Source of the DNA: Candidatus Aminicenantes bacterium | GTDB taxonomy: Bacteria; Acidobacteriota; Aminicenantia; Aminicenantales; Saccharicenantaceae | NCBI GenBank assembly: GCA_963805045.1 | Contig: CAWDTC010000021.1 | Coordinates: forward strand, 45,559-109,558 | DNA: 64,000 nt | Reading direction: 5' to 3' | In this document: piece after piece, positions 11,224 to 62,998 of the stretch | Numbering within the stretch: position 1 is the first letter of the stretch | Layout: each line of letters opens with the position of its first letter | Notes under the pieces: generated by a model | Told to the model about the DNA's origin: nothing | The model's input: the letters and a program-made list of their open reading frames with translations, nothing else | The model's database searches: none | Program-made: the position numbers and the translations under genes

Positions 11224-11311
11224 GGGGACACAATACTCATTTCCGATTTAAACCCATCCCCCTCCTGGGGAAGAACTGGGACCGAAATTCGGAAATGAGT
11301 ATTGTGTCCCC
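11224..11311. repeat. Perfect 23-bp inverted repeat (arms 11224-11246 and 11289-11311) around a 42-nt spacer
   Basis: GGGGACACAATACTCATTTCCGA is exactly reverse-complementary to TCGGAAATGAGTATTGTGTCCCC. The element is AT-rich relative to its flanks and fills the gap between two minus-strand genes. Confidence 0.9.
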
Positions 11312-39052: not shown

Positions 39053-39127
39053 GGGCGGTTAGCTCAGCGGCAGAGTATCGGTCTTACAAACCGGGGGTCG
39101 CAGGTTCGAACCCTGCACCGCCCACCA
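39053..39127 (+). tRNA. tRNA-Val (anticodon TAC), CCA encoded
   Basis: Acceptor GGGCGGT/ACCGCCC, anticodon loop CTTACAA, T arm GCAGG-TTCGAAC-CCTGC. TTGACA, 17 nt, TACGCT at 38992-39020 is a possible promoter. Confidence 0.93.
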
Positions 39128-39260
39128 CCGGTCTTCCCAGGCATCAGGAAGCTCTTGACTTTGCCGGAAAATCTGTTCTATATCTTTCCTCATAGAGATC
39201 CTGATGAGAGCCGTGCGGGCCGGGGTCCGCGCGGCGGCGTTCAGAAGAGGAGGAGGTGTC

Positions 39261-42196: not shown

Positions 42197-42433
42197 ATGG
42201 ACGCGCCGACCGTACAGAGGACAGGCGGAGGCCGCTGGCTGGTCGTTCTGTCCGTCGTCCTGGCCCTGGCCGGGATGGCCGGCTTCTACCTCCTCTTCCT
42301 CCGGCATCTCACCGTCTATTGGCTCATCCTGGCCCCCGTCATCCTCGCCCTCTACGAGGTCCCGGCCGTCTTCGCCGTCTGGCTCTACAAGCGGCGGCGG
42401 AGGGGGGCCGGCGGGAGCGGAAGAGGAGAATGA
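42197..42433 (+). CDS. Small two-TM membrane protein, hypothetical
   Basis: ATG at 42197 after GGGGAGAGGG. It has two hydrophobic helices and an Arg-rich tail. Its last codons lie inside the left copy of the 22-bp direct repeat. Confidence 0.4.
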   Translation: MDAPTVQRTGGGRWLVVLSVVLALAGMAGFYLLFLRHLTVYWLILAPVILALYEVPAVFAVWLYKRRRRGAGGSGRGE

Positions 42434-42438
42434 GCCGT
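42417..42438 (+). repeat. Left copy of the exact 22-bp direct repeat GCGGAAGAGGAGAATGAGCCGT
   Basis: Identical to 58879-58900 in the same orientation. Confidence 0.95.
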
Positions 42439-42899
42439 CAATCTTCGGTCAGGACGTGCGTTTCGTATTCGGCTTCGAGCCTGAGCTTGTGGGTCCGTTC
42501 CTGCCCGGCAAGGAACTCGAAGACTTTCCGGTGCGCCGCGAGTTCCGGCCTCCGGGCCAGGCCGGCGTAGAGATCTTCGGCCTTTTTCTCTTTCCGGGCC
42601 GCGAAAATAAGAAGTTCTTGAAACGTCATGTCGGGCGCGAGCGGCAAGTCCGCCAGGGCGTCCGTGAGCCCCAGATCCGGTACGGGAGCCGCGGCCGCTC
42701 CCTTGGGCGGAGCGACTTTTATTTTCTTCAGGAGGCGGCGGTGCTTCTCTTCTTCGCTCTTGAGCTCGAGGAGGAGGTCCCGCAGGCCCGGCGTCGCGGC
42801 CTGGGTGGCCATGCGGGCGTAGCCCCGGGCCGCCTCGACTTCCCGTTCAACGGCGAAAGCGAGGACATCGCTCATGCTCTCGAAACGGCGGTCAGACAT
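42438..42899 (-). CDS. Ferritin-like / rubrerythrin-family domain protein
   Basis: Start MSDRRFESMSDVLAFAVEREVEAARGY at 42899 after GGAAGGAGG. ExxH-like helices (ELKSEEEKHRRLL; LAGQERTHKLRLEAEYE). Confidence 0.6.
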   Translation of the reverse strand: MSDRRFESMSDVLAFAVEREVEAARGYARMATQAATPGLRDLLLELKSEEEKHRRLLKKIKVAPPKGAAAAPVPDLGLTDALADLPLAPDMTFQELLIFAARKEKKAEDLYAGLARRPELAAHRKVFEFLAGQERTHKLRLEAEYETHVLTED

Positions 42900-43042
42900 T
42901 CCCGTACCTCCTTCCCATGATCGTGACCTGTGCCATATCAATGTACCATTCCTAAAGCGAAATCTTCAAGCTCCGGCGAGATCCCCTTCCCCGACTCCCC
43001 CTCCTGTGGCGGGCAAGGGGTGTCGGCGGCCCCAAATAATCG

Positions 43043-43072
43043 TTGACAAGTTTTCCGAGGATTCAGTAAGTT
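43043..43072 (+). promoter_or_regulatory. Sigma-70-type promoter of the NuoE-like/NfnAB cluster
   Basis: TTGACA, an 18-nt spacer, then TAAGTT, followed directly by the palindrome GTCATTAGTGAC at 43075-43086. Confidence 0.4.
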
Positions 43073-43162
43073 ATGTCATTAGTGACGCAACACGAGGGAA
43101 CGGCGGGGCCGGTCAAACAGGAGCCATGAGCCCTGCCTGTCCCCTTTCCTAAGGAGTCGGAG

Positions 43163-43638
43163 ATGACATCGGAGCGGACCGCCGTAGAACTCGTGGTCTC
43201 CAAGCACCACGGCCGGAAGAGGTCCCTGATCCCCATCCTCCAAGACCTCCAAGAGCGCTGCCGATGGCTTTCGCCCGAAATCCTCGACGAGGTCGCGGCT
43301 GTGCTTTGCCTCCCCGCGGCCCACGTGTGGAGCGTCGCCACTTTCTACAGATCGTTCAGCCTGGAACCGCGCGGGCGGCATCGCTGCACGGTCTGCATGG
43401 GCACGGCCTGCCACGTCCGGGGGGGCGGCCGTTCTGGAGCATTTCGAGCGCAAGCTCGGCATCCGCGCCGGAGAGACGTCGGCCGACGGAGAGTACACGC
43501 TCGAGCGGGTCAACTGCCTGGGCGCCTGCGCCCTGGCCCCGCTGGCCATCGTCGACGGGCGGTATTATGGACAGATGACCGAGATCAAGGCCGACGCGGA
43601 TCTTGGGGACGTTGAGGGAGGGGAAGGAAAAGGCCTAA
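43163..43638 (+). CDS. NuoE/HydC-like thioredoxin-fold [2Fe-2S] subunit, with two frame breaks (G7 run at 43419-43425; GGGG at 43605-43608)
   Basis: ..IPILQDLQERCRWLSPE..VATFYRSF..CTVCMGTACHVRG, then after correction VNCLGACALAPLAIVDGRYYGQMT..LGTLREGKEKA with a stop at 43636-43638. The full four-Cys ligand set is present. Confidence 0.8.
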
Positions 43639-43647
43639 GGGAAGCCC

Positions 43648-45502
43648 GTGGAACACCATCGGATCCACCTCCTTGTCTGCGCCGGGACCGCGTGCGTATC
43701 CTGCGGGGCCTTCGAGCTCAAGGAGGCCCTGGAGAAGGAAGTCGCGCGGCGAAAGCTCCAGGACGAGGTCCTCGTCGTCACGACGGCGTGCCAGGGGTTC
43801 TGCGAGAGAGGGCCGATCCTCATGGTCCATCCGGACGGCGTTTATTATCAGCGCCTGAAGGTCGAGGACGTGCCCTTTCTGGTCGAAGAGCATCTCGTCA
43901 AGGGACGTCCGGTTGAAAAGTTTGTGTACGTCCCGCCGGCAGAAAAATCCTCCGTCCCCAAGATGGCGGACATCGAGTTCTTCAAGCACCAGAGGCTCAT
44001 CGTCCTGCGCAACCGGGGACGCCTCGACCCCGAGAAGATCGAGGAATACATCGCCTGCGACGGCTACGAGGGCATGGCCAAGGCCTTGACGGCGATGACC
44101 CCGGCCGGGATCATCGCCGAGGTCGCGGCCGCCGGCCTCCGCGGCCGCGGCGGCGCCGGCTTCCCCACAGGCAAGAAATGGGCCCTCTGCCAGCAGGCGC
44201 AGGCGGCGCCGAAATACCTGATCTGCAACGGCGACGAGGGCGACCCGGGCGCCTTCATGGACCGGTCAGTCCTCGAGGCCGACCCGCACGCGGTCATCGA
44301 GGGGATGGTCATCGGGGCCAAGGCGATCGGGGCGGCCATGGGCTTCGTCTATATCCGCGACGAATACCCCCTGGCGGTCAGGCGGATGGGCATGGCCATC
44401 CAGCAGGCGAAGGACTACGGCCTGCTTGGCGAGGACATCCTCGGGTCGGGCTTCACCTTCGACCTCGAGATCGTCCGGGGCGCCGGCGCGTTCGTCTCGG
44501 GCGAGGAGACCGCCCTCATCGCCTCGATCGAGGGCCAGCGCGCCTATCCGCGGCAGAGGCCGCCCTATCCTGCCCAGTCCGGCCTGTGGGGGAAGCCGAC
44601 CGTGATCAACAACGTCGAGACGTGGGCCAACGTCCCCTCCATCATCCGCCGCGGCGCCGCCTGGTTCTCCGGCATGGGGACCGAGACGAGCAAGGGGACG
44701 AAGATCTTCTCGCTCGTCGGCAAGATCAACAACACCGGGCTCGTCGAGGTGCCGATGGGCATCCATCTGCGCGAGATCATCTACGGCATCGGCGGAGGGA
44801 TCCCCGGCGGCCGGGAATTCAAGGCCATCCAGATCGGCGGCCCTTCCGGGGGCTGCATCCCCAAGGACCTCCTCGACCTCCCCGTCGATTACGAGAGCCT
44901 GACCAAGGCCGGGGCCATGATGGGCTCGGGCGGCATGATCGTCATGGACGAGGACACCTGCATGGTGGACATCGCCCTCTACTTCCTGCGTTTCATCGAG
45001 GAGGAATCCTGCGGGAAATGCGCCCCTTGCCGGATCGGCACGCGCCAGATGGCCGGGATCCTGGCCCGCATCGTCGCCGGCGAGGGCAGCGACGAGGACC
45101 TGAAGCGGCTCGAGGAGCTGGCCCTCGTCGTCAAGCCGGGATCGCTCTGCGGCCTCGGCCAGACGGCCCCCAATCCCGTCCTGTCCACGCTGCGGTATTT
45201 CCGGGACGAGTACCGGGCGCACATCACGGACCGCTGCTGCCCCGCCCTCGTCTGCAAGAACCTGATCACGTATTTCATCGAGCCGGAGAAATGCGTCGGC
45301 TGCCTCCTCTGCCTCAAGAATTGCCCGACCAAGGCGATCTCCGGGCGAGTCGAAAGAAGTCCACGTCATCGACCAGGCCCTCTGTATCAAGTGCGGGGCC
45401 TGTTTCAACGTCTGCCCGAAGAAGGTCCGGGCCGTCTCGAAATACACGGGAGAGAAGGGCCGGGCGCTCGCCGGCCGGGCCGGGAAACCCGTGAAGCCAT
45501 GA
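43648..45502 (+). CDS. NuoF/HydB-like FMN- and NAD(H)-binding subunit with an N-terminal [2Fe-2S] thioredoxin-like domain and a C-terminal 2x[4Fe-4S] ferredoxin domain, with one frame break near 45350
   Basis: GTG start. LLVCAGTACVSCG..CQGFCERGP; GLRGRGGAGFPTGKKW; ICNGDEGDPGAF; ESCGKCAPCR; CVGCLLCLKNCP; and after correction CIKCGACFNVCP. Its stop overlaps the next ATG. Confidence 0.85.
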
Positions 45503-47787
45503 CCATCACCATCGACGGCCGGACGATCGCCTTCGAGGGGCGGCCCATGATCCTCGAGCTCGCCCGGGCCAACGGGATCGACATCCCTTCGCTCTGCGAC
45601 CATCCCGTGCTCGAACCGTACGCCGCCTGCCGCCTCTGCCTGGTCGAGGTCAAGGGCCGCCGGGGCTATGTTCCGGCGTGCAGCACGGCCGCCGAGGAAG
45701 GCCTCGAGGTCCGGACGGCGACGCCGGAGCTCGCGGCCCTGCGGCGCGGGATCCTCGAGCTCATCCTGGCCGAACACCCCAACGCCTGCCTCATCTGCGC
45801 CGAAAAGAAATCCTGTGACGACTACAAGTCGACGATCCGCAAGACAGGCGAAGTCACCGGCTGCGTCCTCTGCCCGGCCAACGGACGCTGCGAGCTGCAG
45901 CGCGTCGCCGAGGCCGTCGGCGTCGAGCGCGTCCATTTCCCCTCCGCGCGGCGGAAGGGCGAGGTCCGGCGGGACGACCCGTTCATCGACCGGGACAACA
46001 GCCTCTGCATCCTCTGCGGCCGCTGCGTCCGCGTCTGCCACGAGGTGAGAGGGGCGACGGTCCTGACCTTCGTCTCCCGCGGCTCCGAGACCGTCGTCGA
46101 CACGGCCATGAGCCGGCGTCTCGTCGAATCGGGCTGCCGCTTCTGCGGCGCCTGCGTCGACGTCTGCCCCACGGGCTCGCTCTCCGAGCGGGCCGTCCGT
46201 TACGTGGGCCTGCCCGATACGGAGAACCCGGCGCTCTGCCCGTTTTGCGGCCAGGGCTGCAGTCTGACGATCGGACTCAGGGACGGCCGGATCCTCGGCT
46301 CCGCCCCCGACCCGAACGGGGCCGCGAACTGCGGCCAGGCCTGCGTCAAGGGGAGGTTCCTGGTGAGAAGCGCCGTCGACCATCCACGCCGCCTTCTCCG
46401 GCCGATGGTCCGCAGGGAGGGCCGGCTCGAGGAGACGAGCTGGGACGAGGCATTGGCGGCCGCGGCGGGGCGGCTGGCTGACATGCCGGCCGGGACGTCC
46501 GCCGTGGCCATGTCCGCGCAGAGCTCCTGTGAGGACCTCTTCGTCCTCCAGCAGTTCGCCGCGGAGATCCTCGGCGCGGGAGCGTTCACGGCTCCCTGGA
46601 ACGGTTCGGTGGCCGCCGCGCTTCGCGGTCTCGGCGGAGCGGCGCGGCCGGCGGTCCCCATGAACGTCCGGTTGTCCGATCTCGCGCGGCGCGGGCGCTG
46701 TCGTGAACTTCGGCGAGGACTTGCCCTTCACCCAGCCGATCGCGGGCGTCGAGGTCACTCGGGCGGTCTGGCACGGGGCCTCCCTCGTGAACGTCGCCCT
46801 CGAAGGCGCCCGGCCTTGCGGCCAGGCCTGCGTCGAGGTCGACCTCCCGTCGGGAGAAGTGACGAGATTCCTTTCGGTCCTGGCCGCGCTCGTCCTCAAC
46901 CGCCGCGGCCGGGCCTCCGTCAAGGGCGCGGGAAGTGTCAAGTTCAAGGCCGGCCTGAAAGCGCTCGATCTGGCCGCAGCGCGCGCCGCGCTCGGGATCT
47001 CCGAGGAGAAACTCGCCGCGATCCCCCGGGCGCTCGAAACTCCCGGGCCGGTCTTCTTCCTCGTCGGACCCGCCTTCCTCAAGGCGGCCGGCGGGCGGAG
47101 CGGGCTGGCCGCCCTCTGGAACCTGGCCGTCCTCACGGGCGGTCGGGTCGTTCCGCTCGACCCCGAAGCCAACGTGCGCGGCGGACTCGAGATCTCCGCC
47201 GCGTTCCCGTCGAAGGCCGCCATGGCCGAGTCCCTGGTCGCGGCCGCCGCCGGGCGAGAGATCCGGGCCCTGTACATCGCGGGACCTTTCCCCAAGTTGG
47301 AGCCGGGCGCGGCCGAACTCGTCATCTTCCAAGGAAGCTATGACGCCGGGAACGCCGAAGCCGCCGACATCGTCTTCCCGGAGACGACGTCATTCGAATC
47401 GGAAGGGACCTTCGTCAACATCGAAGGCCGCTCCCAGCTCTCCCGCCGAGCCGTCGAGCCGCGGGGCGACGCCAGGCCCGGATGGGCGATCTTGGGGAGT
47501 TGGCCGCGAAGATGGGCCGGACGGATTTCGTCCCCTCCTCGGCCGCCGGCATCAGGAAGGACATCGCCCGCGCCGTTCCCGCCCTGGGCGGGCTGGCGGC
47601 GGACGCCGTCCCTCCGGAGGGCGTCTTCCTGGCCGAGGAGCCGAAGACGGCCGGATTCATCGCCGGAGGCAAGGAGGCTCCGGGCCGAGGCGCGGAGACG
47701 GCTCCGGCGCGGCGGGACCCGGATGATTACAAGGGTCTGAACCTGGCCCTTGAGACGAAGAGCCTGAGGCTCGTGCGAGGACGATGA
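45499..47787 (+). CDS. NuoG-like Fe-S subunit with a degenerate molybdopterin-oxidoreductase-like C-terminal domain, with at least 3 frame breaks
   Basis: MTITIDGRTIAFEG..CRLCLVEV (2Fe-2S), CILCGRCVRVC and CRFCGACVDVCP (4Fe-4S), and CPFCGQGCS..NCGQACVKGRF (MopB-type cluster). It continues in ORFs 46703-47740 and 47482-47787. I could not see a Cys/Sec-His catalytic pair. Confidence 0.75.
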
Positions 47788-48621
47788 TGCCCAAGATCCT
47801 GGAGCGACGGCGCCTGGTGCCCAACTTGCACCTCATCGAGGTCCACGCCCCCGAGGTGGCCAGGAAATGCCGGCCCGGGCAGTTCGTCATCGTCATGCCC
47901 GACGAGAAGGGCGAGCGGATCCCTCTGTCGATCGCCGACTGGGACACGGAACGGGGCTCGGTCACGGCCGTCTTTCTCGTCGTCGGCACGACGACGCGGA
48001 AGCTCGCCGCGCTCGGCCCCGGCGCCGAGGTCCCCGTCTTCGTCGGCCCGCTGGGCCGTCCCTCCGAGATCGCCGCGTTCGGAACGGTCGTCCTGGCCGG
48101 CGGCTGCTTCGGCATCGGGGCCCTCTGGCCCGTGGCCCGGGCGCTCAAGGCGGCCGGGAACCGCGTCATCGCCCTCCTCGACGCCAAGGCGGACTATCTC
48201 GTCTACTGGAAGGACCGCTACCTCTCGGTCTGCGACAAGCTCCTGTTCTCGTCGCGGGACTATGCCCTCGGCTCGAAGGAGTTCGTGCCCGGGCCGCTCG
48301 CGGCGGTCCTCAAGGCCGAGGCGCCGGTGGCCCGGGTCATCGCCGTCGGCTGCACCTATCTCATGTACGCCAGCTCCCAGGCCACGCGTCCGCTGGGCAT
48401 CAAGACGATCGTCAGCCTGAATCCGATCATGGTCGACGGGACGGGCATGTGCGGCGCCTGCCGCTGCACGGCGGCGGGCAAGACCAAGTTCGCCTGCGTC
48501 GACGGGCCGGACTTCGACGGCCACGAGGTGGACTGGGACGAGCTTTTCGCGCGGCGGAAATCCTACTTCGACGACGGAGGTCCGCTCGCTCTGCCAATGG
48601 GAGGAGCGCGAGCTCCCTTAG
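47784..48621 (+). CDS. nfnA: NfnA / sulfide-dehydrogenase-beta-like FAD and [2Fe-2S] subunit; the 3' end depends on a frame correction near 48575
   Basis: MMPKILERRRLVPNLHLIEV..RPGQFVIV..RIPLSIAD..MVDGTGMCGACRC..KFACVDGPDFDGHEVDW. With a +1 correction it ends EVRSLCQWEERELP at 48619-48621. Uncorrected, the ORF ends at 48761. Confidence 0.8.
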
Positions 48622-48757
48622 GACGAGGGACGAACAAGGCATGGCCGAGGACAAGAAGGAAAGAGCTGGCCCCGGAAGAAAAGGCACGGCTCCGGGCCGG
48701 GTTCGAGAAGGAATGGCGCAAGGAGCTCCGCAAGGTCGCTTCCGGTCAAAGGAGCGG

Positions 48758-50149
48758 ATGAAGGGCGCCCGCCAGAAGATGCCGGAACGCCCGCCGGATG
48801 TCCGCAACCGCGATTTCAAGGAGGTCAACCTCGGCCTGACGCCGGAGATGGCCCAGGAGGAGGCCCGGCGCTGCCTCGACTGCGCCAATCCCCAGTGCGT
48901 CACCGGCTGCCCCGTGTCCATCGACATCCCGGGCTTCGTCAAGCTCATCGAGGCCGGGCGACTTCCTCGAGGCGGCCTGGAAGCTCAAGGAGACGAACTC
49001 GCTGCCGGCCATCTGCGGCCGCGTCTGCCCGCAGGAATCCCAGTGCGAGGAAGTCTGCACGCTCAAGAAGGCCACCGGGATTTCCGTGGCCATCGGCAAC
49101 CTGGAGCGCTTCGCGGCCGACTTCGAGCGGGGCAGCGGCTCCCTGAAGATCCCGCCCCTGCCGCCGCCGACGGGAAAGAAAGCGGCCGTCATCGGGGCCG
49201 GGCCGGCGGGGCTGACGGTCGCGGGCGACCTGGCCAAGCTCGGCCACAAGGTCACGATCTTCGAGGCCCTCCACGAATCGGGCGGCGTCCTGATCTACGG
49301 CATCCCCGAGTTCCGGCTCCCCAAGGCCATCCTCAAGGCCGAGGTCGATTACCTGCAGGCGGCTCGGCGTCGAGATCCGGACGAGCTTCGTCGTCGGCCT
49401 GACCGCGACGATCGACGACCTGCGGGCCGACGGCTACGAAGCCTTCTTCATCGGCTCGGGCGCGGGACTGCCGAACTTCATGAAGATCCCCGGGCGAGAA
49501 CCTGGTCGGCGTCTACTCGGCCAACGAATACCTGACGCGGGTCAACCTCATGCGGGCCTACGCATTTCCCGAGCTACGACACGCCGGTCTTCAAGGCCAG
49601 GACGGCGGCCGTCATCGGCGGCGGGAACGTCGCCATGGACTCCGTCCGCACGGCCAAGCGGCTGGGCGCCGAGCGGGCCGTCATCGTCTACCGCCGCTCG
49701 CGGACCGAGATGCCCGCCCGGATCGAGGAGATCCACCACGCCGAGGAGGAAGGGATCGAGTTCCAGCTCCTGACGACGCCCGTCCGCTACTTCGGGGACG
49801 AGCACGGACATGTCAGGGCCATGGAATGCCAGAAGATGGGGCTCGGCGAGCCCGACGCTTCGGGCCGGCGGCGCCCCGTCCCGATCGAGGGCTCGGAATA
49901 CACGATGGAGGTCGACCTCGTCGTCTGCGCCATCGGCCAGAGCCCCAACCCGCTCATCCCCCAGACGACGCCCGGCCTCAAGGTCGGCAAATGGGGGAAT
50001 GTCGAGGTCGACTGGACGACCATGGCGACCGAGCATCCCGGGCATCTATGCCGGCGGCGACATCGTCCGGGGCGGGGCGACGGTCATCCTGGCCATGGGA
50101 GACGCCCGGGCTCGCGGCCGCCGAGATCGACAGGTATCTTTGCCGCTGA
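48758..50149 (+). CDS. nfnB: NfnB / GltD-like NADPH-dependent oxidoreductase subunit (FAD, 2x[4Fe-4S]), with about 6 frame breaks
   Basis: MKGARQKMPERPPDVRNRDFKEVNLGL..RCLDCANPQCVTGCPV..ICGRVCPQESQCEEVC..AAVIGAGPAGL..IGGGNVAMD..IYAGGD..AAAEIDRYLCR. The reading steps +1 near 48958, 49366, 49498, 49576, 50032 and 50106. Confidence 0.85.
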
Positions 50150-50359
50150 CCTCGGCCGAGGACCTGAACGACTTTTATAAAGATCCTCCGCCAGACGATA
50201 TTCTTCCTTGATATCGGCAGGGACAGGGGGATCCCTCCCTGGCGATGTTCGAAGCGGTCCGGTGCCTTTCGAAGAAGGCGAACCCGTCCCCCGTCATCGA
50301 GCAAAAATCGTCCGACCCATATCTGGATACGGCAATATGGTTTTGCTCGTCTCAATGCA

Positions 50360-50737
50360 TCAAACACCAATTGAAGTACGGTCATCATTTTCTCGATGAA
50401 AAACTGCCAGATAACAGTCGCTCAAGTAAGTCCTTCGAGCGCTCCCGCCACAGCAATCCGCAAGGGCCGACAGAACGAACATGTGCTCTTCGTTGGGCTT
50501 CAGCTTGCTTTTCTTCGTCCGTCGCGTCTGCCGTCGCTTTGACCATAGCGATGAACCCAATACGTTGTATGGGCCGCGACAGCAAGGAGCAACACCGATC
50601 AGGGTCAGGAGGATCCAGTCCGGAATCACCCACCGGGAGACGTTCAGCTTGACCCCCCACTTGAGTATCCCGAGCACCAACACGACGGCTCCGCATGCCT
50701 CCGCCAAGAACTTGATAAGCGCTCTCCAATAGCTCAT
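50360..50737 (-). CDS. Hypothetical membrane protein, probably broken and continuing toward about 50150 in other frames
   Basis: 125-aa ORF with two hydrophobic helices and a basic linker. Protein-like stretches in two other minus frames follow it (..FDALRRAKPY.., ..PADIKEEYRLAEDLYKS). It is the first gene of the low-GC island. Confidence 0.3.
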   Translation of the reverse strand: MSYWRALIKFLAEACGAVVLVLGILKWGVKLNVSRWVIPDWILLTLIGVAPCCRGPYNVLGSSLWSKRRQTRRTKKSKLKPNEEHMFVLSALADCCGGSARRTYLSDCYLAVFHRENDDRTSIGV

Positions 50738-50797
50738 CTTGACCTCTGGTCAATTGTCATGAGACGAGGCTCCTCCGGCCCATCTCACGCTGATCCC

Positions 50798-51375
50798 CTA
50801 TGAAAAGCCTCTCGCCAAGACTGCCCCAGCCAACAACGGAGTTTCTTGGGCCTTGCACGCTCCCCTTAACGTATCAGCGAAGTGCCATGGCGTCAAGTCG
50901 CCAAGCGAACCGTCCGGCCGGAATTCGTTGTCATCTTCGCGCTACTTCTCTATCGTCTCCGGAGCGTCCTCCATTGACAAGAACCCATTCCCATTCAGGC
51001 ATGTATCCCGAAACGGGCCGTTGACCGACCCGACTGATATTATCGATTCTCGTTAAGGCCCGGCACCGAAGGCCGTCAAAGAGGCTATCGACGACAAAAT
51101 CCATGCTCCATTAGGCGTTAAGTCGGTTCCTCTCCGGCCGGGCTACCCAACGGCTACCCGTGGCATGCCGACGGGAACGCTTGCGCCTCAGGATGCTCGA
51201 CACGTTCCCGCCTCTGGGCAGGCTTCAGAATATTATTGAACTGCCGGTTCTCCTCCTCCCGTTACCTCAAGCAGGGCGAAACGCATTCCTTGATTTTCCC
51301 GACCGGGTTTGCTATACATTTGTTGGGCCTTTTAGGAATCGTGCTTTTCCCCAAATTCTTCGCTTCAGAAAATGA
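50798..51375 (-). mobile_element. Decayed, internally deleted IS3-family transposase relic (OrfA tail plus OrfB fragments)
   Basis: Minus-strand fragments in shifting frames: AQQMYSKPGRENQGM; REEENRQFNNILK (leucine-zipper end of OrfA); LRRKRSRRH..RPERNRLNA*WSMDFVVDSLFDGLRCRALTRIDNISR; FRDTCLNGNGFLSMEDAPETIEK*REDDNEFRPDGSLGDLTPWHFA. The DDE core between them is missing. A TAG sits where the conserved Trp of ..IE.WR.DYN.. belongs. Confidence 0.75.
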
Positions 51376-51397
51376 ACCGAGAATCAGAAGGAGGAAT

Positions 51398-52686
51398 ATG
51401 GTGGCTGATAAATCGTACAATCCATTTGAAATAGCCCAAGCTCAGTTCGACAGAGTGGCTGATCTTCTCGATTTGGACAAGGCGACCCGGGACTTGCTCC
51501 GTTATCCTCTGAGGGAATACCATTTCAGCATCCCCGTTCGCATGGACGACGGCAAGGTCCGGATATTCAGGGGGTTCAGGGTTCAGCATAACGATGCGCG
51601 CGGCCCCGGCAAAGGGGGAATCCGTTTCCATCCGATGGAAAATGTCGATATCGTTCGTGCCCTCGCGATGTGGATGACGTGGAAATGCGCGGTGGTCGAT
51701 ATCCCGTTGGGCGGAAGTAAAGGCGGCGTCGTGTGCGATCCGCACAATTTGAGCCCCCGAGAGCATGAACAGCTCTGCCGCGGCTGGGTCCGCCAGATCG
51801 CCAAGAATGTCGGTCCCCATTTGGATGTTCCGGCTCCCGATGTGATGACGAGCCCGCAACGATGCTGTGGATGCTCGATGAGTTCGAGACGATCCATGGC
51901 GGCAAGTATCCCGGTTTCATCACCGGCAAGCCGGTCAGCATCGGAGGCTCGCAAGGCCGGACGGAAGCGACCGGCTACGGAGTTGTCTTCACGCTCAGGG
52001 AAGCCCTCAAAGATCTGAATCTGAAGGCCGAACAGACTCAAGCCAGTGTCCAGGGATTTGGCAACGTGGCCCAATATGCGATTGAACTGTACCAGCGGAT
52101 CGGCGGGACCGTGACCTGCGTTTCATGCTGGGATCAGGCAGATAAAAGGTCCTACAGCTATCGCAAGAAGCAAGGCGTCGGTCTCGAAGAGCTCTTGAAG
52201 ATCACGGATGCCTTCGGCGGCATTGATCAAAGCGAAGGCCAGGGAGATCGGCTATGAAATACTGCCCGGCGAAGCCTGGATCGAACAGGACGTCGACATT
52301 CTCATCCCGGCCGCTATCGAGAATCAGATCACCGTCGAGAACGTCAACAAAATCGGCAAGCGCGTGAGGATCATTGCCGAAGGGGCCAATGGGCCGACCA
52401 CACCCGAAGCCGACGCCGTGCTCAGGAGCGGGATATTTTCAGGATTCCGGACTTCCTGGCGAATGCCGGCGGCGTGACGTGCAGTTACTTTGAACAAGTC
52501 CAGAGCAACATGAATTATTACTGGGAGAAAGACGAAGTGCTGGCCAAGCTGGATGCCAAAATGACGGCGGCCTATATCGAGGTCCGGGAACTTTCAAGAA
52601 AAAAGAAACTGAATATGAGAGATGCCGCCTATGTCATCTCCATCAATCGGGTCGCTCAGGCATGCCGGGATCGTGGCTGGGTATAG
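51398..52686 (+). CDS. gdhA: Glutamate dehydrogenase (Glu/Leu/Phe/Val dehydrogenase family), with at least 3 frame breaks
   Basis: AAGGAGG then ATG at 51398. [12 protein letters not shown] and [18 protein letters not shown] (catalytic Lys block). Pieces 51862-52257, 52208-52477 and 52474-52686 follow. The first break looks like a lost A in CAAACG near 51858. Confidence 0.85.
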
Positions 52687-52760
52687 CCATTCCGTCCCGG
52701 ACAGATTATGCGGAACTTCAGCGATGCTTGATACAATCGAGACGAGGGGGCTCGAATTCA

Positions 52761-54514
52761 ATGAACAAGCCAAATCAATGGCCATCGGGGGGGCATGACA
52801 TCCAAGAGTTTCAGGGGGAGTTTTTCGATCCCAACCGACGCTTGACCTCGATCGGATCGGGCTCCATCGGCGCCAAGGCCAGCGGATTGGCCTTCATCGA
52901 CGAGGTCTTGAAATCAAAGCTCAACTCCCAGGATTCCGGGCAGATTCAAGTCAGCATTCCTTCCTTGACGGTCATTCGCACCGATGTCTTCGATGCGTTC
53001 CTGAAGCGAAACGGCCTGACCGACATGGCCTATTCAGAATCGGCCAACGACGTGATCGCCCACGCTTTCCAAAAGGCCCTCTTGCCCGCCGAGATCCTCG
53101 GCGACTTGCGCGGCTGATCGAAAAAGTCCACACGCCGCTGGCCATCAGATCTTCCAGCATGCTGGAAGACGCGTTCAATCAGCCCTTCGCCGGCATTTAT
53201 GTCACGAAGATGATCCCCAACAACCAGCCGAGCCCCGATGTCCGCTTTCAGAAGCTGATGGAAGCCATCAAGCTCGTCTACGCCTCCACGTTTTCAAAAT
53301 CGGCCAAGGATTACCTCAAGGCGATCAGGCGTTCCCTGACGACGAAAAGATGGCCGTGATCATCCAGGAGGTGGTCGGTTTGCGTCATGCGGATCGTTTC
53401 TATCCGAACATCTCGGGCATAGCAAAATCGTACAATTTCTATCCTATCGGCCGCTCAAGGCCTGAAGATGGCATGGCCAGCCTGGCCTTGGGCTTGGGAA
53501 AAACGATCGTCGACGGCGGAACATGCTGGACTTACTCGCCGGCCTATCCCGGCATCAGCGCCCCGTGGCCTCGGCCGGCGAGCTCATGGAACAGACTCAA
53601 GACGAATTCTGGGCCATCAACATGGGAAAGCCCCCGGCCTATGACCCTCATTAAAGAAACCGAGTACATGGTGCAGTCGAATCTCTCCGATGCGGAGGCG
53701 GATGGCACGCTGAGCAACATCGCCTCGGTTTATGATGTCCAGGAGGACAGGATTTCCATGGGACTTGACCGCGAAGGGCCGAGGGTGCTCAACTTTGCCG
53801 GCTTGCTCGTCCTGAAAGGAGTTCCCTTGAATGACGTGATCAGTTCTCTCTTGAACATATCTCAACAGGCTCTCGGGGCGCCGGTGGAGATTGAATTTGC
53901 GGCGACGTTCAACCCCTCATCGTTTCGGATTTCTGCAGGTCAGACCGATGGTTGTGCCCGGCGACGAAATTGACATCGCTGAAGAAGAACTCAAAGGGGA
54001 AGACGTCTTCTTAGCGTCCAAAAATGTTTTGGGGAACGGGATCATCGAGACAATCCGGGACATCGTCTACGTCAAGCCGAAAGAGTTTGAAGCCAAGTAC
54101 TCTCCGCGCATCGCTCTGGAATTGGAGACGGTGAACAGAGGACTTCTTGACAAAGGACGGCCTTACTTGCTCATTGGATTCGGCCGATGGGGGAGTTCCG
54201 ATCCCTCGGCTGGGATACCGGTCGAATGGGGACAGGTCTGCGGCGCCAAGGTGATCGTGGAAGCGACCGGGCCGACGATGAAGGTCGAGCTGAGCCAAGG
54301 ATCGCATTTTTTCCACAATCTCAGCAGTTTCGAAGTCTGCTATTTCTGTGTTCCGTATTCAGGTGAATATTCGATCAACTGGGAATGGCTAAGCCGGCAG
54401 AGGGGTGAACAGGAGACTCAGTTTATTCGCCATGTCGTCTTGCCGACCCCCTTGCAAGTTAAAGTCGACGGAAGAAGCGGCCGGGGCGTCATTCGCACGC
54501 CCCGATCTGCCTAA
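52761..54514 (+). CDS. PEP/pyruvate-binding (PPDK_N ATP-grasp) domain protein, paralogue 1, with at least 3 frame breaks
   Basis: IGSGSIGAKASGLAFI, LAIRSSSMLEDAFNQPFAGIY, MAVIIQEVVG, VEIEFAA.., then a C-terminal module LLIGFGRWGSSDP..SQGSHFFHNL. Pieces 52662-53117, 53159-53359, 53350-53973 and 53891-54514. Confidence 0.75.
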
Positions 54515-54534
54515 GGGAGACATCCATAAACATC

Positions 54535-57500
54535 ATGGACAAATCCGTCGAGAACCTGCTCTACGCTCTCAAAGAGCGGGCCAAAGAGCTGAACTGTCTT
54601 TATGAAGTCGAAGGGCTCTTCAACAAGCCTGATGCGTCCCTAACGGCGATTCTGGAGGGAATCGTCCGTGCCATTCCGGCAGGATGGCAGTATCCGGACG
54701 TCTGCCAGGCAAGAATCACCTACGGCGATCACTCGTTTCAGTCGCCGAACTTCAAAGAGACACCGTGGGTTCAAAGCGCCAATATCACCGTCCAGGACGA
54801 AGTCGTCGGAAAAATAAGCGTCTATTATACCGAAGAGAGACCCCGCCGACGAAGGCCCGTTCTTGAGGGAAGAACGTAAGCTCATCGAGACCATTGCCGA
54901 CCGCCTCGAACGCCGAATCTTCTTCGAGAGATCAAGGTCGTCTTCGAAAAGCAAACGGTTGGCAAGGAACGCGCGGTCAATGTTGGGTCGTCCTCGACCT
55001 GTTGAGAAGGACGGACTTGAAGCTCTTAACGCACGTGACCAGAAAGATGCTCAACTATCTGTCATGGTCCGGGATCGCGGAAGCCAACACGCTGTTGGAG
55101 AAGATCAGCCCCGCCTCGATGACGGATCAAGATGACGTTCTTCAGGGCATGAATCGGCCATCGCTGTCAGAGGCCGCCAACGACTCTGACGAATCTACGA
55201 TGATATTTTCAGGATGGCGAACAGGTACTTGGGCGAGAAGGAAGTCTTGAACAGCATTCAGAAGTGGATCATGGAGGATCGCTCCAATTTTCTCGTCAAG
55301 GTCCTCGAGGATCCCGGTTCAACCCTGGCGCAGATCACCAATGCCATCGAGCGATTTCATCACCTGATCCCTCATGGCCTGAACCTGCCCTCCCCGAGGG
55401 AAAAGGGCTTCCGCGTCTCGCTCATTCGAAAGCTCCTCAACGACGATCTGCACTTCATCAATGTCGCGAAGAAGTATCTTGAGGTCGACGATTTCCATGA
55501 TCTGTTGCACCATATCATCTTCCCGGCGGAGTCAGGGAAGACTCGGCGGCAAGGGCTCGGGCCTGTTTCTGGCGTCCCAGATCTTAAAAAAGTCTACAAT
55601 GGACAATGAACCCTCCGCAAGATCAAAACCCCGAAGACCTGGTATCTCACCTCCGACGGCATCATGAATTTCATCAGCCATAACGACCTCGAAGAGATCG
55701 TGGAACAGAAGTACGAGGATATTGACGCGGGTACGGCAGGAATATCCGTATGTCGTCCATGTTTTCAAGAATTCCTCCCTGCCGCCGAAATCGTCAATGC
55801 GCTCTCGGTCGCGCTTGACGATCTCGGCGAGCGTCCTCTCATCGTCAGGAGCTCGAGCCTCCTGGAGGACCGCATCGGAACATCGTTCGCCGGCAAATAC
55901 AAGAGCTTGTTCATCGCCAACCAGGGCAAAAACGGGAGAGGTTGCCGCGCTCATGGACGCCATTGCGGAAGTGTACGCATCGATCTTCAGCCCTGATCCC
56001 ATCGAGTACCGGATTGAGCACGGCATGATCGATTTCAACGAGGAAATGGGCATCCTCATCCAGGAAGTCGTCGGGAAAAAAGTCGGCCATTATTTCATGC
56101 CGGCCTTTGCCGGAGTCGCCTTCTCTCGCAATGAATTCCGTTGGTCGCAGCGCATCCGAAGAGAAGATGGACTGGTGCGAATGGTGCCGGGATTGGGAAC
56201 GCGCGCCGTCGATCGGTTCAGCGATGACTATCCGATTCTGGTCGCCCCGGGGCAGCCGAACCTCCGCGTAAATGTCACCATCGATGAAAAAATACACTAC
56301 TCGCCGAAGAAGATCGATGTCATCAATTTCAGAGACGAATTCATTCGAGACCATCGAAATCCGAGAGCTTCTCAAGATGTACGGAGACGAATATCCGTTG
56401 ATCCACCAGATCGGCTCCGTCTTTCGGAATGACCGGCTGGACCCGCTCGGACCACTAGGGACTGATTTCGAGAAGAGCCGTCGTCCTGACATTCGACGGC
56501 CTCATCAACAACACGCCGTTCATGGAGCAAATTCGCTCCATTCTCAAGGTTCTCGAAACCGAGCTGGGCAACTCCCGTTGATATCGAATTCGCCCATGAC
56601 GGGACAAATCTGCATCTGCTGCAGTGCCGGCCGCAAAGTCACGCCAAAGCCTCTCAGCCGCCCGCAATTCCGAGGGACGTTCCGAAAGACAGAATCCTTT
56701 TCACGGCCAACCGGTATGTCACGAATGGGACCGTTTCGGGCATCACCCACATCGTTTACATCGATCCGCAAAGATACGGAGAACTGACGAACCGGGCCGA
56801 TCTCCTGGCCGTGGGCCGGGCCGTGAGCAAGCTGAATCAAATCCTGCCGAAACGCCAGTTCATTCTCATGGGGCCCGGCCGCTGGGGCAGTCGAGGAGAT
56901 ATCAAACTTGGCGTGAGCGTTTCCTATTCGGATATCAACAATACGGCGATGATCATCGAAATCGCCCGGAAACAGAAAGACTACGTGCCCGAGCTCTCCT
57001 TCGGCACGCATTTCTTCCAGGACTTGGTTGAGGGCTCGATCCGTTACCTTCCCCTTTACCCGGATGACAGGGGAGTCGTGTTCAATGAGGAATTTCTTGC
57101 GAAATCAAAAAACATTCTGCCCGACCTTCTCCCGGAATATTCTTCTCTTTCCGACACCATTCGCGTGATCGAGCTGGCGGACTCTGCGGACGGTCAGGTC
57201 TTCCAGGTCCTCATGAACGGCGAGAGAGATGAGGCGGTCGCCATCTTGGGGAAATCCTCGGCGGAGACGACCATGGCCGCCGAAAAACCCCGGGAGAGGA
57301 ACCCCAAGAAAAGAGAGACGACGCTCACTGGCGATGGCGCCTCAGCAGCGTCGAACATATTGCGGCCAGGATGGACGCTCAGCGGTTCGGCGTGAAGGCC
57401 TTCTATATCTTCGGGAGCACCAAAAACGCGACGGCGGGCCCTGAAAGCGATATCGACATCCTGATCCATTTCAACGGGACGGACACACAAAGGAAGGATC

Positions 57501-57865
57501 TGATGAGCTGGCTCGAAGGATGGAGCCTTTCTTTGAGTGAGGCCAATTACCTGCGGACCGGGCACAAAACGGACGGGTTGCTCGATATCCATATCGTGAC
57601 GGATGAGGATATCCAGAGCAGGACCAGCTTTGCGACCAAGATCGGCGCCATCACGGACGCCCCCAGGTCGCTGCCGATGGGCAAGGACTTAAAAGAGCCG
57701 TCCGCGGGTCAGATAAGCTCTCTCGTCGAGGCTTCCAAGTCATCGAGCCTGAAGCGGACCAGCGCCAGTTCCGGGCCGTCGTGCGCGGCGGAAAAGAGAT
57801 GGGTCCGGCCGATCTTGTCTTTCCAGGAACCGGTGATCCGAGCCGATTCGTGGACGTGTCCGTGA
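54535..57865 (+). CDS. Large multidomain protein with an N-terminal KELNCLY-type sensor-like module, a PPDK_N ATP-grasp domain (paralogue 2) and a C-terminal minimal nucleotidyltransferase domain. It has at least 7 frame breaks. The fusion of the last domain and the 3' end are uncertain.
   Basis: LKERAKELNCLYEVEGLF..GWQYPDVCQARI..DEGPFLREERKLIETIADRLE; GKLGGKGSGLFLA; LIVRSSSLLEDRIGTSFAGKYKS; MGILIQEVVG; DIEFAHDG..LLQCRP; ILMGPGRWGSRGD..SFGTHFFQDL; then KAFYIFGSTKNATAGPESDIDILIHF. The listed stop at 57865 would overlap the convergent gene by 157 nt. Confidence 0.65.
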
Positions 57866-58674
57866 AGAGTCAAGAGCGGTCGATATGTTTCAATGAACCG
57901 TCGAACGCCAATGCTCCCGACGTGGAGATCCAGCGGCACATGATCGACCATCTGGCCGTCCAAGGCGGCCCGGTCGAGGTTGGTTTGATACGGGGGGCTG
58001 TGAAAGAGGAAGATCGCGCGAGAGAGATCGCCCCGTCCGACGAGGTGGTCAAGATCAGCCTTGATGGTGGCCTTTCTCAGGTCGGAATCCGGGACCGGGA
58101 CCGAGCGCGTTCCCTCTTCCGGGCTGATGCAGTCCGGGTCGACATATCGCGAGACATCATAACGTTCCCAGTCTTTCAAGCTGAACGGCGTGGGCGGGAC
58201 GCAGGCATAGCCGAAAACCGAGAATTCCGACAGCCGGACCCGGCGATGATGGATATATTCCCATAGGCCCCGCCGGCTTCCGGCCAGGATCGCCGCTTCC
58301 TCGGAGCGCGGGTCGTCGTTTCCCAGGATCAGAAAGACCCTGGGATAGTCCTTCCCGAGCGCCTTCTTCAATCGCGCGAATCTCGGCGCCAAGAAGTCCT
58401 TGACAAAATCGGGGAAAGCCTCATGCGTCGATGAGAGCGCGAGCAGATAGGATGGGAGGAGATCCCCTCCGAGGAACACCGCCCTCGGGCGCTCCTGTCT
58501 GATCGCCTGAAAAAGCTTCTCGTAACGATCGATGCGTCCGTGCAGGTCGGAGGCAAAGAAGCACGTCGATGGGTCAGAGGACCGATCGCCGGAGATCCTG
58601 TCGGAACCTCTTTTTCGCATGGAAGCATACTCGCCCGGGCCGCCGCCGGAGCCAATCGCCCGTGGCGAGTCCAT
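57709..58674 (-). CDS. Calcineurin-like metallophosphoesterase
   Basis: Intact ORF; the start may be MRKRG at 58620. It has FFASDLHG, FLGGDLL, ILGNDD, LFHSPP and TLHGHVHE metal-binding blocks. Confidence 0.8.
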   Translation of the reverse strand: MDSPRAIGSGGGPGEYASMRKRGSDRISGDRSSDPSTCFFASDLHGRIDRYEKLFQAIRQERPRAVFLGGDLLPSYLLALSSTHEAFPDFVKDFLAPRFARLKKALGKDYPRVFLILGNDDPRSEEAAILAGSRRGLWEYIHHRRVRLSEFSVFGYACVPPTPFSLKDWERYDVSRYVDPDCISPEEGTRSVPVPDSDLRKATIKADLDHLVGRGDLSRAIFLFHSPPYQTNLDRAALDGQMVDHVPLDLHVGSIGVRRFIETYRPLLTLHGHVHESARITGSWKDKIGRTHLFSAAHDGPELALVRFRLDDLEASTRELI

Positions 58675-58804
58675 TATAACTCAATCCCCGTGACGGAGGG
58701 CCCGTACCCCTTCTCCCATGCCGCGGCCTGCCCCCTCTCCTGCCCGGAAACGGCCTTGCGACGCCCCGGGCATTCTCGGGACAGGGCTTCGGAAAACTAA
58801 GACG

Positions 58805-58880
58805 TGGCGCCCCCGACGGGATTCGGACCCGTGTTGCCGCCTTGAAAGGGCGATGTCCTAGGCCTCTAGACGACAGGGGC
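58805..58880 (-). tRNA. tRNA-Glu (anticodon TTC), CCA encoded, with an atypical T-loop
   Basis: The reverse complement GCCCCTGTCGTCTAGAGGCCTAGGACATCGCCCTTTCAAGGCGGCAACACGGGTCCGAATCCCGTCGGGGGCGCCA aligns along its length with a canonical bacterial tRNA-Glu. The T-loop reads TCCGAAT instead of TTCGAAT. Confidence 0.85.
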
Positions 58881-58900
58881 GGAAGAGGAGAATGAGCCGT
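58879..58900 (+). repeat. Right copy of the exact 22-bp direct repeat GCGGAAGAGGAGAATGAGCCGT
   Basis: It spans the first 2 nt of tRNA-Glu, the 12-nt spacer and the last 8 nt of tRNA-Lys. It is identical to 42417-42438. Confidence 0.95.
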
Positions 58901-58964
58901 GCTGGACTCGAACCAGCGACACCCGGCTTAAAAGGCCGGTGCTCTCCCTCTGAGCTAACGGCCC
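58893..58964 (-). tRNA. tRNA-Lys (anticodon TTT), CCA not encoded
   Basis: Acceptor GGGCCGT/ACGGCTC (one G-U pair), anticodon loop CTTTTAA, T arm GCTGG-TTCGAGT-CCAGC, 72 nt. Confidence 0.88.
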
Positions 58965-59036: not shown

Positions 59037-59726
59037 TCAGGCGACCGGCTCGAACCGGATGATGACCCACCGGCTCGGCAGCTTCTGCCCCGCGTCGGTC
59101 TTGACGTCGTACATCCGCATCGGCAGCTTGTAGTTCTTGACCGCGCCCTGCTTGGTCTTGATCTTGACCACGACGTCCTTGGAGTGGACGTTGCCGCTCA
59201 GGTCGCGGACACCGGCCAGCTCGCGGAGACCGAGCGAGAACAGCGTGATCTGTTCCTCCATCGAGGCGGCGTTCTTGGCGTCCGTGTAGGCCTTCTTGAA
59301 CTCCTTCATCTTGCCGTACTCTTCGTCGTACTTGGCCTGGGTCTCGTCGACCTTCTTCTTGGCGATGGCCTTGGCCCCGGCCGTCCGGGCCAGGTCGAGC
59401 TCATCCTTGGCGTTGGCGAGGGCCGCGTCGGCGTCCATGGTCGGGCCGATCTGGCCGTCCTGGGCCTTCTTGGCCTCCATTTCCTTCTTGTTCAGGTCGG
59501 AGAGGGTGACGGGATCGGTCTTTTCCGGGCTGACGCTGACGATCTCCCAGGACGCGACTTCCCACTGGGCCGGCTCGAGGGCCATGGAGGCCATGGTTGA
59601 GTTGTCGTTCATCGTGACGGCGTTGAAATAACGGGACAGGAGCCCCTGTTCAGGGTTTGACGTGCAGCTTTGGACCGCGAAAAAGGCGATCAAGATCCCG
59701 AGAACGACGAGTGTCTGTTTTCTCAT
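59037..59726 (-). CDS. Lipoprotein, hypothetical
   Basis: ATG at 59726 after GAAGGAGG. MRKQTLVVLGILIAFFAVQSC lipobox, with a charged coiled-coil middle. Confidence 0.6.
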   Translation of the reverse strand: MRKQTLVVLGILIAFFAVQSCTSNPEQGLLSRYFNAVTMNDNSTMASMALEPAQWEVASWEIVSVSPEKTDPVTLSDLNKKEMEAKKAQDGQIGPTMDADAALANAKDELDLARTAGAKAIAKKKVDETQAKYDEEYGKMKEFKKAYTDAKNAASMEEQITLFSLGLRELAGVRDLSGNVHSKDVVVKIKTKQGAVKNYKLPMRMYDVKTDAGQKLPSRWVIIRFEPVA

Positions 59727-59923
59727 GAAGCCTCCTTCTTCGAGTATTCTCCGCAATATTCCTGGCCCCATCTTAACCTCATTCGGGAGGAAAAAGCAAG
59801 CCCTAAAATGCCGGTTGGAGGCCGGCCCGCCCTCAGGCGCCGCCTCGTCCGCCCCCTCCGCGGAGGCTTTGTTTGCCGCCCCGATTGTGCTAGACTACTA
59901 CGTTCATCCGTGGGGGTAGAATC

Positions 59924-61734: not shown

Positions 61735-62432
61735 GATCCGCTTCACCATCGACGGCAAGGAGTGCCTGGCCAAGCCGGGCCAGACCATCGTCGAGGCCGC
61801 CAAGGCCAACGGCGTCTACATCCCCGTCCTCTGCCACTACGAGGGGCTCAAGCCCGTCGGCAGCTGCCGCGTCTGCACGGTCCGCGTCGGCGGGCGGTAC
61901 ATGGCCGCCTGCACCCAGCCTGTGACCGAGGGCATGGCCGTCGAGAACACGGCCCCGGACCTCGAGGACATGCGCCGCGCCCTCATCGAGATGCTCTTCG
62001 TCGAGGGCAACCACATGTGCCCGACCTGCGAGAAGAGCGGCAACTGCGAGCTCCAGGCCCTGGCCTACCGCTACCGGATCATGGCCCCGCGCTTCCCTTA
62101 CCTGTTCCCCGTCCGAGAGCTCGACGCCTCGAGCCCGAAGATCATGCTCGAGCGCAACCGCTGCATCCAGTGCCTCCGCTGCGTCCGGGGCGTCCGGGCC
62201 AAGGACGGGCGGAAGGTCTTCGCCGCCCAGGACCGGACCGGCCGGGTGACGATCGAGGCGGACCGCGACCTCGCCGCCCGCCTCACCGATGCGGAGGCCC
62301 GCCGGGCCATGGATCGTCTGCCCCGTCGGCGCCATCCTGAAGAAGGAGGTCGGCTTCGCCGTGCCCATCGGGAAGCGCAAGTTCGATACGAAGCCCATCG
62401 GCAGCGACATCGAGGAAGGGCCCGCGAGGTGA
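61727..62432 (+). CDS. hoxU: HoxU-type Fe-S subunit (NuoG N-terminal-like), with one frame break near 62310
   Basis: MTEIRFTIDGKECLA..CRVCTVRVGG..CPTCEKSGNCELQ..CIQCLRCVR. After correction it reads CPVGAILKKE..GSDIEEGPAR with a stop at 62430-62432. Confidence 0.8.
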
Positions 62433-62436
62433 GATC

Positions 62437-62983: not shown

Positions 62984-62998
62984 AGGGTGAACAGACGC

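Follow-up and report, generated by a model that had tools for sequence, protein, structure and literature searches.

A 22-nucleotide (nt) direct repeat is the subject of this report. It lies in a 64,000-nt stretch of DNA from an uncultivated Candidatus Aminicenantes bacterium (GenBank assembly GCA_963805045.1, contig CAWDTC010000021.1, positions 45,559 to 109,558 of the forward strand), and we refer to that whole stretch as the window. The right copy of the repeat is the native junction between a tRNA-Lys gene and a tRNA-Glu gene. The left copy is probably a nonfunctional recombination scar, the decayed remnant of a target that was duplicated when a block of resident chromosomal genes was inserted without an integrase. 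An initial annotation, made from the letters of the window, had interpreted the two copies as candidate att sites of an integrated or relic element.

The repeat and its two copies

The sequence GCGGAAGAGGAGAATGAGCCGT occurs at positions 42417 to 42438 and 58879 to 58900 of the window, in the same orientation, as the initial annotation had reported. No further match is present in the window even when three mismatches are allowed. The repeat is the longest exact direct repeat of the window, the runners-up being 19 nt, and it stretches to 25 nt with one mismatch (42414 to 42438 versus 58876 to 58900). An exact direct repeat of at least 22 nt appeared in 2 of 450 windows simulated with Markov models of order 2, order 3, and order 5, or about 0.4% per window. 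The chance figure of 1e-4 given in the initial annotation was too optimistic, though the simulated frequency is still small.

Read in the sense of the tRNA genes, both copies consist of ACGGCTCA (the end of tRNA-Lys), TTCTCCTCTTCC (the spacer), and GC (the start of tRNA-Glu), where ACGGCTCA is made up of the last 7 nt of the tRNA-Lys acceptor stem plus the discriminator. The gene boundaries called by ARAGORN agree with the composition first described for the right copy, and this junction is conserved in all relatives. Likewise, the left copy does form the final codons and stop of a small membrane protein gene (here smp) and touches the stop of a convergent ferritin-like gene, called rubrerythrin below; its last base falls within the TGA stop codon there, an overlap of 1 nt. 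No other fragments of tRNA-Glu or tRNA-Lys are present in the window. The features concerned are as follows.

42197 to 42433, plus strand: smp, 78 amino acids (aa), ending ...SGRGE and stop, with the final codons and stop supplied by the left copy
42417 to 42438, minus strand: left copy, orphan tRNA-Lys/tRNA-Glu junction fragment (25 nt long, with one mismatch, if taken to 42414)
58805 to 58880, minus strand: tRNA-Glu(UUC), which in this arrangement type encodes its CCA (ARAGORN)
58879 to 58900, minus strand: right copy, native junction (last 8 nt of tRNA-Lys, 12-nt spacer, first 2 nt of tRNA-Glu)
58893 to 58964, minus strand: tRNA-Lys(UUU), with CCA not encoded (ARAGORN)

The insertion site

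Relatives of the locus were also sought by junction pattern. Genome contigs yielded one real relative (L028) and three chance matches, and a metagenome scan yielded eight loci, comprising four new relatives (L031, L033, L035, and L036), two that had already been found (L029 and L030), and two chance matches (L032 and L034). Ten contigs carry an uninterrupted site (L001 to L004, L018, L019, L028, L033, L035, and L036). Nine of them are 86 to 91% identical to the window on the right flank, and L035 is more distant at 75 to 79%. The order at the uninterrupted site is Hox genes, a gene encoding a 229-aa protein, tRNA-Lys, the 12-nt spacer, tRNA-Glu, smp on the opposite strand, an outer-membrane protein (OMP) gene, tRNA-Val, and L21. 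There, the stop of smp overlaps or abuts the 3' end of tRNA-Glu, and each contig holds a single copy of the junction. The C-terminal tail and stop of smp in the window are unlike those of these relatives.

Homology of the uninterrupted loci to the window, as aligned by blastn, stops at 58807 and 42400 and leaves one segment unmatched.

42401 to 58806, no strand: segment of about 16.4 kb without a counterpart in uninterrupted-site relatives (blastn ends at 42400 and 58807)

In place of this segment, L001 holds 38 nt of smp tail. The position of the two homology ends shows that the roughly 16.4 kb of the window was inserted between the 3' end of tRNA-Glu and smp. Moreover, two further arrangement types, one seen in L015 and L005 and the other in L021 and L022 together with L008 to L011 (L023 is similar), keep smp beside tRNA-Glu and carry the genes of two segments of the block, S1 and S2 (listed below), on the far side of smp and in different orders. 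Because the uninterrupted sites and both of these types keep smp next to tRNA-Glu, the arrangement of the window is the derived one at that boundary.

The right boundary of the insertion is the 3' end of tRNA-Glu (58806/58807), which is 72 nt from the right copy, with tRNA-Glu in between. Thus, the idea that the repeat brackets an inserted block was half right: the left copy marks one end of the lineage-specific 16.4 kb, but the two repeats do not delimit it. The empty site that had been predicted, with smp directly abutting tRNA-Lys, fared similarly. An uninterrupted site with a single copy of the junction exists, but in it smp abuts tRNA-Glu and not tRNA-Lys.

The CCA end of tRNA-Glu is encoded only in the inserted-block arrangement (GGGGGCGCCA; window positions 58805 to 58807, and L016 and L017). 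At uninterrupted sites (L001, L018, L019, and L028), the end of tRNA-Glu reads GCGCTA or GCGCTTA, and the last bases are those of the smp stop on the other strand. Contig L028 (DATKJS010000059.1), from a public metagenome-assembled genome, is labelled Terriglobales, yet it has 88% nucleotide identity over 8 kb to this Aminicenantales-type locus, which suggests that it is mislabelled or mis-binned. ARAGORN also calls an odd 98-nt tRNA-Leu in L028, at 2964 to 3061, that overlaps the end of the OMP homology.

The left copy in independent assemblies

The order NuoE, rubrerythrin, junction fragment, smp, and OMP is common to five assemblies from different samples, two from ENA (L012 and L013) and three from JGI (L031, L039, and L014, the last being the same as L030). 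In L012 to L014 and L031, the fragment is ACGGCTCATTTTCCTTTTCCGCCCC, which comprises 8 nt of tRNA-Lys, the spacer, and 5 nt of tRNA-Glu and is identical at 25 of 25 positions to the native junction of L018. In L039, the fragment is ACGGCTCATTCTCCTCTTCCGTCCC, with the spacer variant of the window, TTCTCCTCTTCC. That variant is also native to the window itself and to L028 and L033, which among the uninterrupted-site relatives come closest to the window on the left flank. From this comparison, the ancestral left copy was 25 nt long and carried the spacer of the window. Gene conversion that keeps the two copies identical was considered and is not needed, given that the spacer of the window is native to L028 and L033 and is the left-copy spacer of L039.

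Because an orthologous left copy is found in five independent assemblies, neither chance nor misassembly accounts for it, and the left copy is a true paralogous piece of the tRNA-Lys/tRNA-Glu junction. The second new junction, at which tRNA-Glu with its encoded CCA is followed by a phosphoesterase gene, is also found in two assemblies, L016 and L017. The initial annotation had kept an assembly artefact among its options, and that option falls with the recurrence of both junctions.

The rubrerythrin joint and a longer second copy

The rubrerythrin gene ends in gaagatTGAC in all lineages, and the sequence beyond that point varies.

L005 to L007: TGACG, followed by tgccc
L008 and L009: TGACC, followed by tgcc
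L037 and L038: TGACGGCTC, followed by cccgctcaatg
Window type: TGACGGCTCA, followed by ttctcc

The 3' end of tRNA-Lys reads agcACGGCTCA. The rubrerythrin joint has 3 to 7 nt of microhomology, as ACG (in comparison with L005 to L007) or ACGGCTC (in comparison with L037 and L038) is common to the 3' flank of rubrerythrin and the 3' end of tRNA-Lys. At the other edge, the smp tail of L028 and L033 has CTTCCCGCTCC, which resembles the fragment end CTTCCGC(C/T)CC, and the G/C-rich tail allows other alignments.

Two relatives, L037 (JGI) and L038 (ENA), carry a longer second copy. In both, the rubrerythrin gene (90% identical) is followed, after a gap of about 41 to 47 nt, by the last 108 nt or so of the 229-aa gene and then by the tRNA-Lys intergenic/promoter region. 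The whole corresponds to window positions 59144 to 58979, at least 166 nt, matches the native locus of L016 and L019 at 95.8% identity, and is collinear with the fragment in the window. A deletion between the two ACGGCTC motifs of a state like that of L037 and L038 would give exactly the joint of the window. The longer copy supports, without proving, a target duplication that was originally longer and later decayed.

The rubrerythrin gene is a recurrent breakpoint, with rearrangements at its stop in several lineages (L005, L008 to L011, L015, L021 to L023, and L037 and L038 were compared with window positions 42436 to 42969 and 51273). It is co-directional with the glutamate dehydrogenase (GDH) gene in L005 and divergent from it in L008, and it adjoins smp in the window (42436 to 42969) and a fragment of the 229-aa gene in L037 and L038. 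Across these gene orders, the interval from the tRNA-Lys/tRNA-Glu pair to tRNA-Val is a rearrangement hotspot in Aminicenantales.

Gene content of the block

The content listed for the block in the initial annotation, namely, a rubrerythrin-like gene, a NuoEFG/Nfn cluster, a low-GC part, an IS3 relic, and tRNA-Glu, was recovered in full. The block and its flanks contain the following features.

39053 to 42002, plus strand: left flank, with tRNA-Val and the CarboxypepD_reg/beta-barrel OMP gene, syntenic with uninterrupted-site relatives
42438 to 42899, minus strand: rubrerythrin/ferritin-like gene (153 aa in relatives)
43163 to 50211, plus strand: segment S1, with NuoE-, NuoF-, and NuoG-like and NfnA/NfnB-like genes, GC 0.68, frames broken by 1-nt indels
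50178 to 50803, minus strand: remnant of a 195-aa open reading frame that neighbors NfnB in relatives (L015 6114 to 6739, 81%)
About 50888 to 51034, minus strand: relic of an IS3-family transposase (rve_3, C-terminal 49 aa; Pfam E = 8.6e-8) at the joint of S1 and S2
51398 to 57865, plus strand: segment S2, with GDH, a PPDK_N-domain protein, and a PPDK_N+nucleotidyltransferase protein, GC about 0.56, frames broken by 1-nt indels
57709 to 58674, minus strand: metallophosphoesterase, adjoining the 3' end of tRNA-Glu (same junction in L016 and L017)
59037 to 59726, minus strand: conserved 229-aa hypothetical gene upstream of tRNA-Lys

Homologs of the rubrerythrin and of the 229-aa protein come from Candidatus Aminicenantales metagenome-assembled genomes and from metagenomes. 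Moreover, genes of the block recur beside the same tRNA pair in other Aminicenantales lineages, in other orders and at 87 to 91% identity. The cargo of the block thus consists of clade-resident chromosomal genes rather than alien DNA.

A recently imported low-GC island was considered and rejected, because S2 is low in GC in every relative (0.50 to 0.53). The cluster of GDH, PPDK_N, PPDK_N-nucleotidyltransferase, and metallophosphoesterase genes lies 10 to 15 GC points under its surroundings in all Aminicenantales lineages examined (0.50 to 0.56 versus 0.63 to 0.68). It was located at the following positions and, judged by composition, appears to be a conserved anomaly or an old acquisition.

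Window: 51273 to 58685
L005: 10743 to 17570
L008: 2306 to 9686
L016: 11092 to 13791

The window differs from every short-read relative by about 3 to 4 gaps per kb, mostly of a single base, across S1, S2, and the Hox flank. Between 43000 and 64000, examples lie at 43258, 43597, 44424, 45343, 48572 to 48746, 49357 to 50108, and 59762 to 62996. As a control, two short-read relatives at similar divergence have 3 gaps in 7.2 kb. Because the gap rate against short-read relatives far exceeds that of the control, the frameshifts seen in NuoE, NuoF/G, NfnB, GDH, the PPDK-like genes, and HoxF most likely reflect long-read consensus errors rather than pseudogenes. Elsewhere in the window, at 11224 to 11311, an AT-richer patch holds an inverted repeat unrelated to the 22-mer, with nearly perfect arms of 26 nt (exact over 23 nt) around a loop of 36 nt.

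Mobility functions and duplicated segments

No tyrosine integrase or excisionase was found in the block, and all of its coding capacity could be assigned. The initial annotation had likewise seen none, and a six-frame Pfam scan of the unassigned 1.3 kb (50150 to 51450) bore this out, as it returned only the rve_3 relic of a DDE transposase. Except at tRNA-Glu and over a conserved part of the NuoF-like gene, the block showed no similarity to plasmids or phages. When the window is set against the features of a genomic island, an intact tRNA gene and a cognate 3' fragment on the downstream side in the same orientation are present, although the fragment holds only 8 nt of tRNA-Lys. No integrase lies in the interval. 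At the uninterrupted site, the flanks are not joined through one repeat, as tRNA-Glu and about 38 nt of smp tail intervene. Finally, the interval has neither a mobility module nor lineage-alien cargo, its genes being conserved in Aminicenantales chromosomes.

Three other origins for the block were tried and rejected. A composite IS3 transposon or other unit bounded by insertion sequences (IS) is at odds with a single internal relic of 49 aa and with the lack of IS sequence at either end. An island targeted to tRNA-Glu should have the 3' end of that gene repeated where the block ends on the opposite side, and no such repeat is there. As to tandem segmental duplication, the NuoE/F-like genes (44047 to 45225) and HoxE/F (60523 to 61626) are only 66 to 72% identical paralogs with no collinear homology. 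Short exact matches between these two clusters are spaced 16.39 to 16.43 kb apart, compared with 16.46 kb for the 22-mer. The two clusters exist separately in relatives, and their near-equal spacing to that of the 22-mer is a coincidence.

Discussion

We consider it probable that the left 22-mer is a scar with no function of its own, left behind by the decay of a duplicated target after an integrase-free insertion. The ancestor would have had the 229-aa gene, tRNA-Lys, the 12-nt spacer, tRNA-Glu, and, in opposite orientation, smp. About 16.4 kb of clade-resident metabolic genes (rubrerythrin, NuoEFG/Nfn-like, GDH, two PPDK-like, and phosphoesterase) would then have been placed between tRNA-Glu and smp by homology or microhomology, with no site-specific integrase taking part. 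The insertion would have left a distal copy of the target, consisting of the 3' end of the 229-aa gene, tRNA-Lys, the spacer, and tRNA-Glu, between the rubrerythrin gene and smp. The first step may have been a Campbell-type single crossover of a circle, the entry of a donor fragment that included the tRNA locus, or else an illegitimate join. One deletion, between ACGGCTC in the 3' flank of rubrerythrin and ACGGCTC at the 3' end of tRNA-Lys, and another, of the tRNA-Glu body and the old smp tail, could then have worn the copy down to the surviving 25 nt, which would now give smp its last codons and stop. We infer the order of these events, the place of the long-copy relative as an intermediate, and the mechanism of the first insertion.

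Several observations weigh against this account. No donor-like arrangement was seen to contain inverted S2, the IS relic, and S1 together as they are ordered inside the block, and attempts to derive this order from those of the L005 or L008 type took at least about three events. On the smp side, the end of the fragment cannot be placed with single-nucleotide precision, as the tail is G/C rich and of low complexity and admits several alignments. The contigs of L037 and L038 stop before the tRNA, just before or within the second-copy stretch, and the proximal copy beside Hox is not on the same contig. Moreover, an old integrase-mediated island would likewise leave a directly oriented repeat at a tRNA 3' end and uninterrupted sites in relatives.

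Such an island would have entered the 3' end of tRNA-Lys by means of a tyrosine integrase, bringing its own spacer and tRNA-Glu, and would later have lost the integrase and the displaced tRNA-Glu, so that the two copies would be relics of attL and attR. We regard this origin as quite unlikely. The parts of the att interpretation that stand are a true copy of the junction whose side and orientation are correct, its place at one end of the block, and the uninterrupted site in relatives. A block that is partly low in GC and holds an IS relic, and a block-side tRNA-Glu that encodes CCA unlike that of uninterrupted sites, can be added in its favor. The boundaries, the recombinase, and the alien cargo do not stand, however. 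There is neither an integrase or excisionase nor unassigned room for one, and phage and plasmid similarity is lacking. The uninterrupted site is not flank, repeat, and flank, and the cargo is resident in other chromosomal arrangements of the clade. The joint itself is one of microhomology, with 3 to 7 of the 8 repeated tRNA-Lys nucleotides native to the rubrerythrin flank, and the second copy in L037 and L038 reaches upstream of tRNA-Lys into the 229-aa gene, unlike an att duplication of a 3' end. The low GC of S2 in all lineages would go unexplained, and the carried spacer and tRNA-Glu and the two losses are extra assumptions. A templated insertion in one step, in the manner of template switching, is unlikely as well. 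In that case, the nascent strand of a single replication-based rearrangement would have left the smp tail, copied some 12 to 20 nt of the Lys/Glu junction by way of microhomology, and switched to the end of rubrerythrin. The template is merely 120 to 140 nt or so away in uninterrupted-site relatives, and microhomology is possible at both edges (ACG to ACGGCTC at one, G/C-rich matches to the smp tail at the other). On the smp side, however, the microhomology is ambiguous, and duplication followed later by decay is a simpler explanation for the much longer copy that L037 and L038 have at this joint. To our knowledge, bacteria offer few well-documented examples of such templated insertions.

That a purine-rich 22-mer recurs here by chance, or that an assembly chimera was joined at a shared k-mer, is hardly conceivable. 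The simulated frequency is well above 1e-4 and the window is rich in errors, with its 3 to 4 one-nt indels per kb, but the left copy occupies the same position in five independent assemblies, four of them matching a native junction variant over 25 nt, and L016 and L017 share the right junction. Independent assemblies effectively refute both. It seems very unlikely that the block is an integrase-free metabolic cassette of about 16 kb that moves between strains, carries a copy of the tRNA locus, and inserts by single-crossover homologous recombination. It would be every bit as doubtful, then, to read the interval from tRNA-Lys/Glu to tRNA-Val as a hotspot for such a homology-targeted cassette and the 22-mer as its worn-down repeat. 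The cargo of the cassette would be a putative flavin-based electron-transfer complex (NuoEFG/Nfn-like), rubrerythrin, GDH, and PPDK-like enzymes.

Islander recognizes genomic islands targeted to tRNA genes by an intact tRNA gene, a displaced 3' fragment, and a tyrosine integrase (PMC4383910). Like those islands, the window has a tRNA 3'-end fragment, direct and downstream of the intact gene, that bounds a multikilobase segment which relatives lack. Unlike them, its block has no integrase, and its repeat is made of 8 nt of tRNA and 14 nt beyond. A complete tRNA-Glu gene separates the right repeat from the real boundary, the cargo is of resident metabolic genes, and the duplication in the relative (L037 and L038) continues past the tRNA on its upstream side. 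Slipped misalignment, which deletes DNA between short direct repeats without RecA, is reportedly a common source of bacterial deletions. The proposed decay would resemble it in using the 7-nt ACGGCTC and pyrimidine/GC-rich direct repeats of about 10 nt, roughly 120 to 350 nt apart; unlike the known cases, the deletions here come from comparing lineages, and one endpoint is ambiguous.

Integration of foreign DNA is said to occur by Campbell-type single crossover and by homology-facilitated illegitimate recombination. The window is like both in having an insert flanked by a duplication of the host target, no recombinase of its own, and one microhomology joint. It is unlike them in that the donor and first event come from inference and only 22 to 25 nt of the duplication are left. 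The term homology-facilitated illegitimate recombination occurs in PMC6382021. A likeness exists, too, to the templated inserts discussed above, in that a short stretch, bounded by microhomology, would have been copied into a breakpoint from a template some 0.1 kb distant. Such insertions at the junctions of rearrangements, attributed to fork stalling and template switching (FoSTeS) or microhomology-mediated break-induced replication (MMBIR), are known mostly from eukaryotes and from studies of amplification in Escherichia coli. The locus departs from them in the longer copy of L037 and L038, which favors decay of a larger duplication over a 20-nt template switch.

The scar is real but ordinary, a mark of rearrangement in an uncultivated lineage whose tRNA-flanked interval is plastic. 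Its significance outside this lineage is small, and it opens no new question. It does indicate that the textbook-looking combination of a tRNA 3' end, a direct repeat, and a low-GC block can arise without a mobile element, a caution for island callers that relax the requirement for an integrase. Given the single-base indels in the source assembly, apparent pseudogenes in the window should not be taken at face value. For the biology of Aminicenantales, redox modules (NuoEFG/Nfn-like and Hox-adjacent) and GDH/PPDK-like enzymes are reshuffled between close lineages at the interval from tRNA-Lys/Glu to tRNA-Val.

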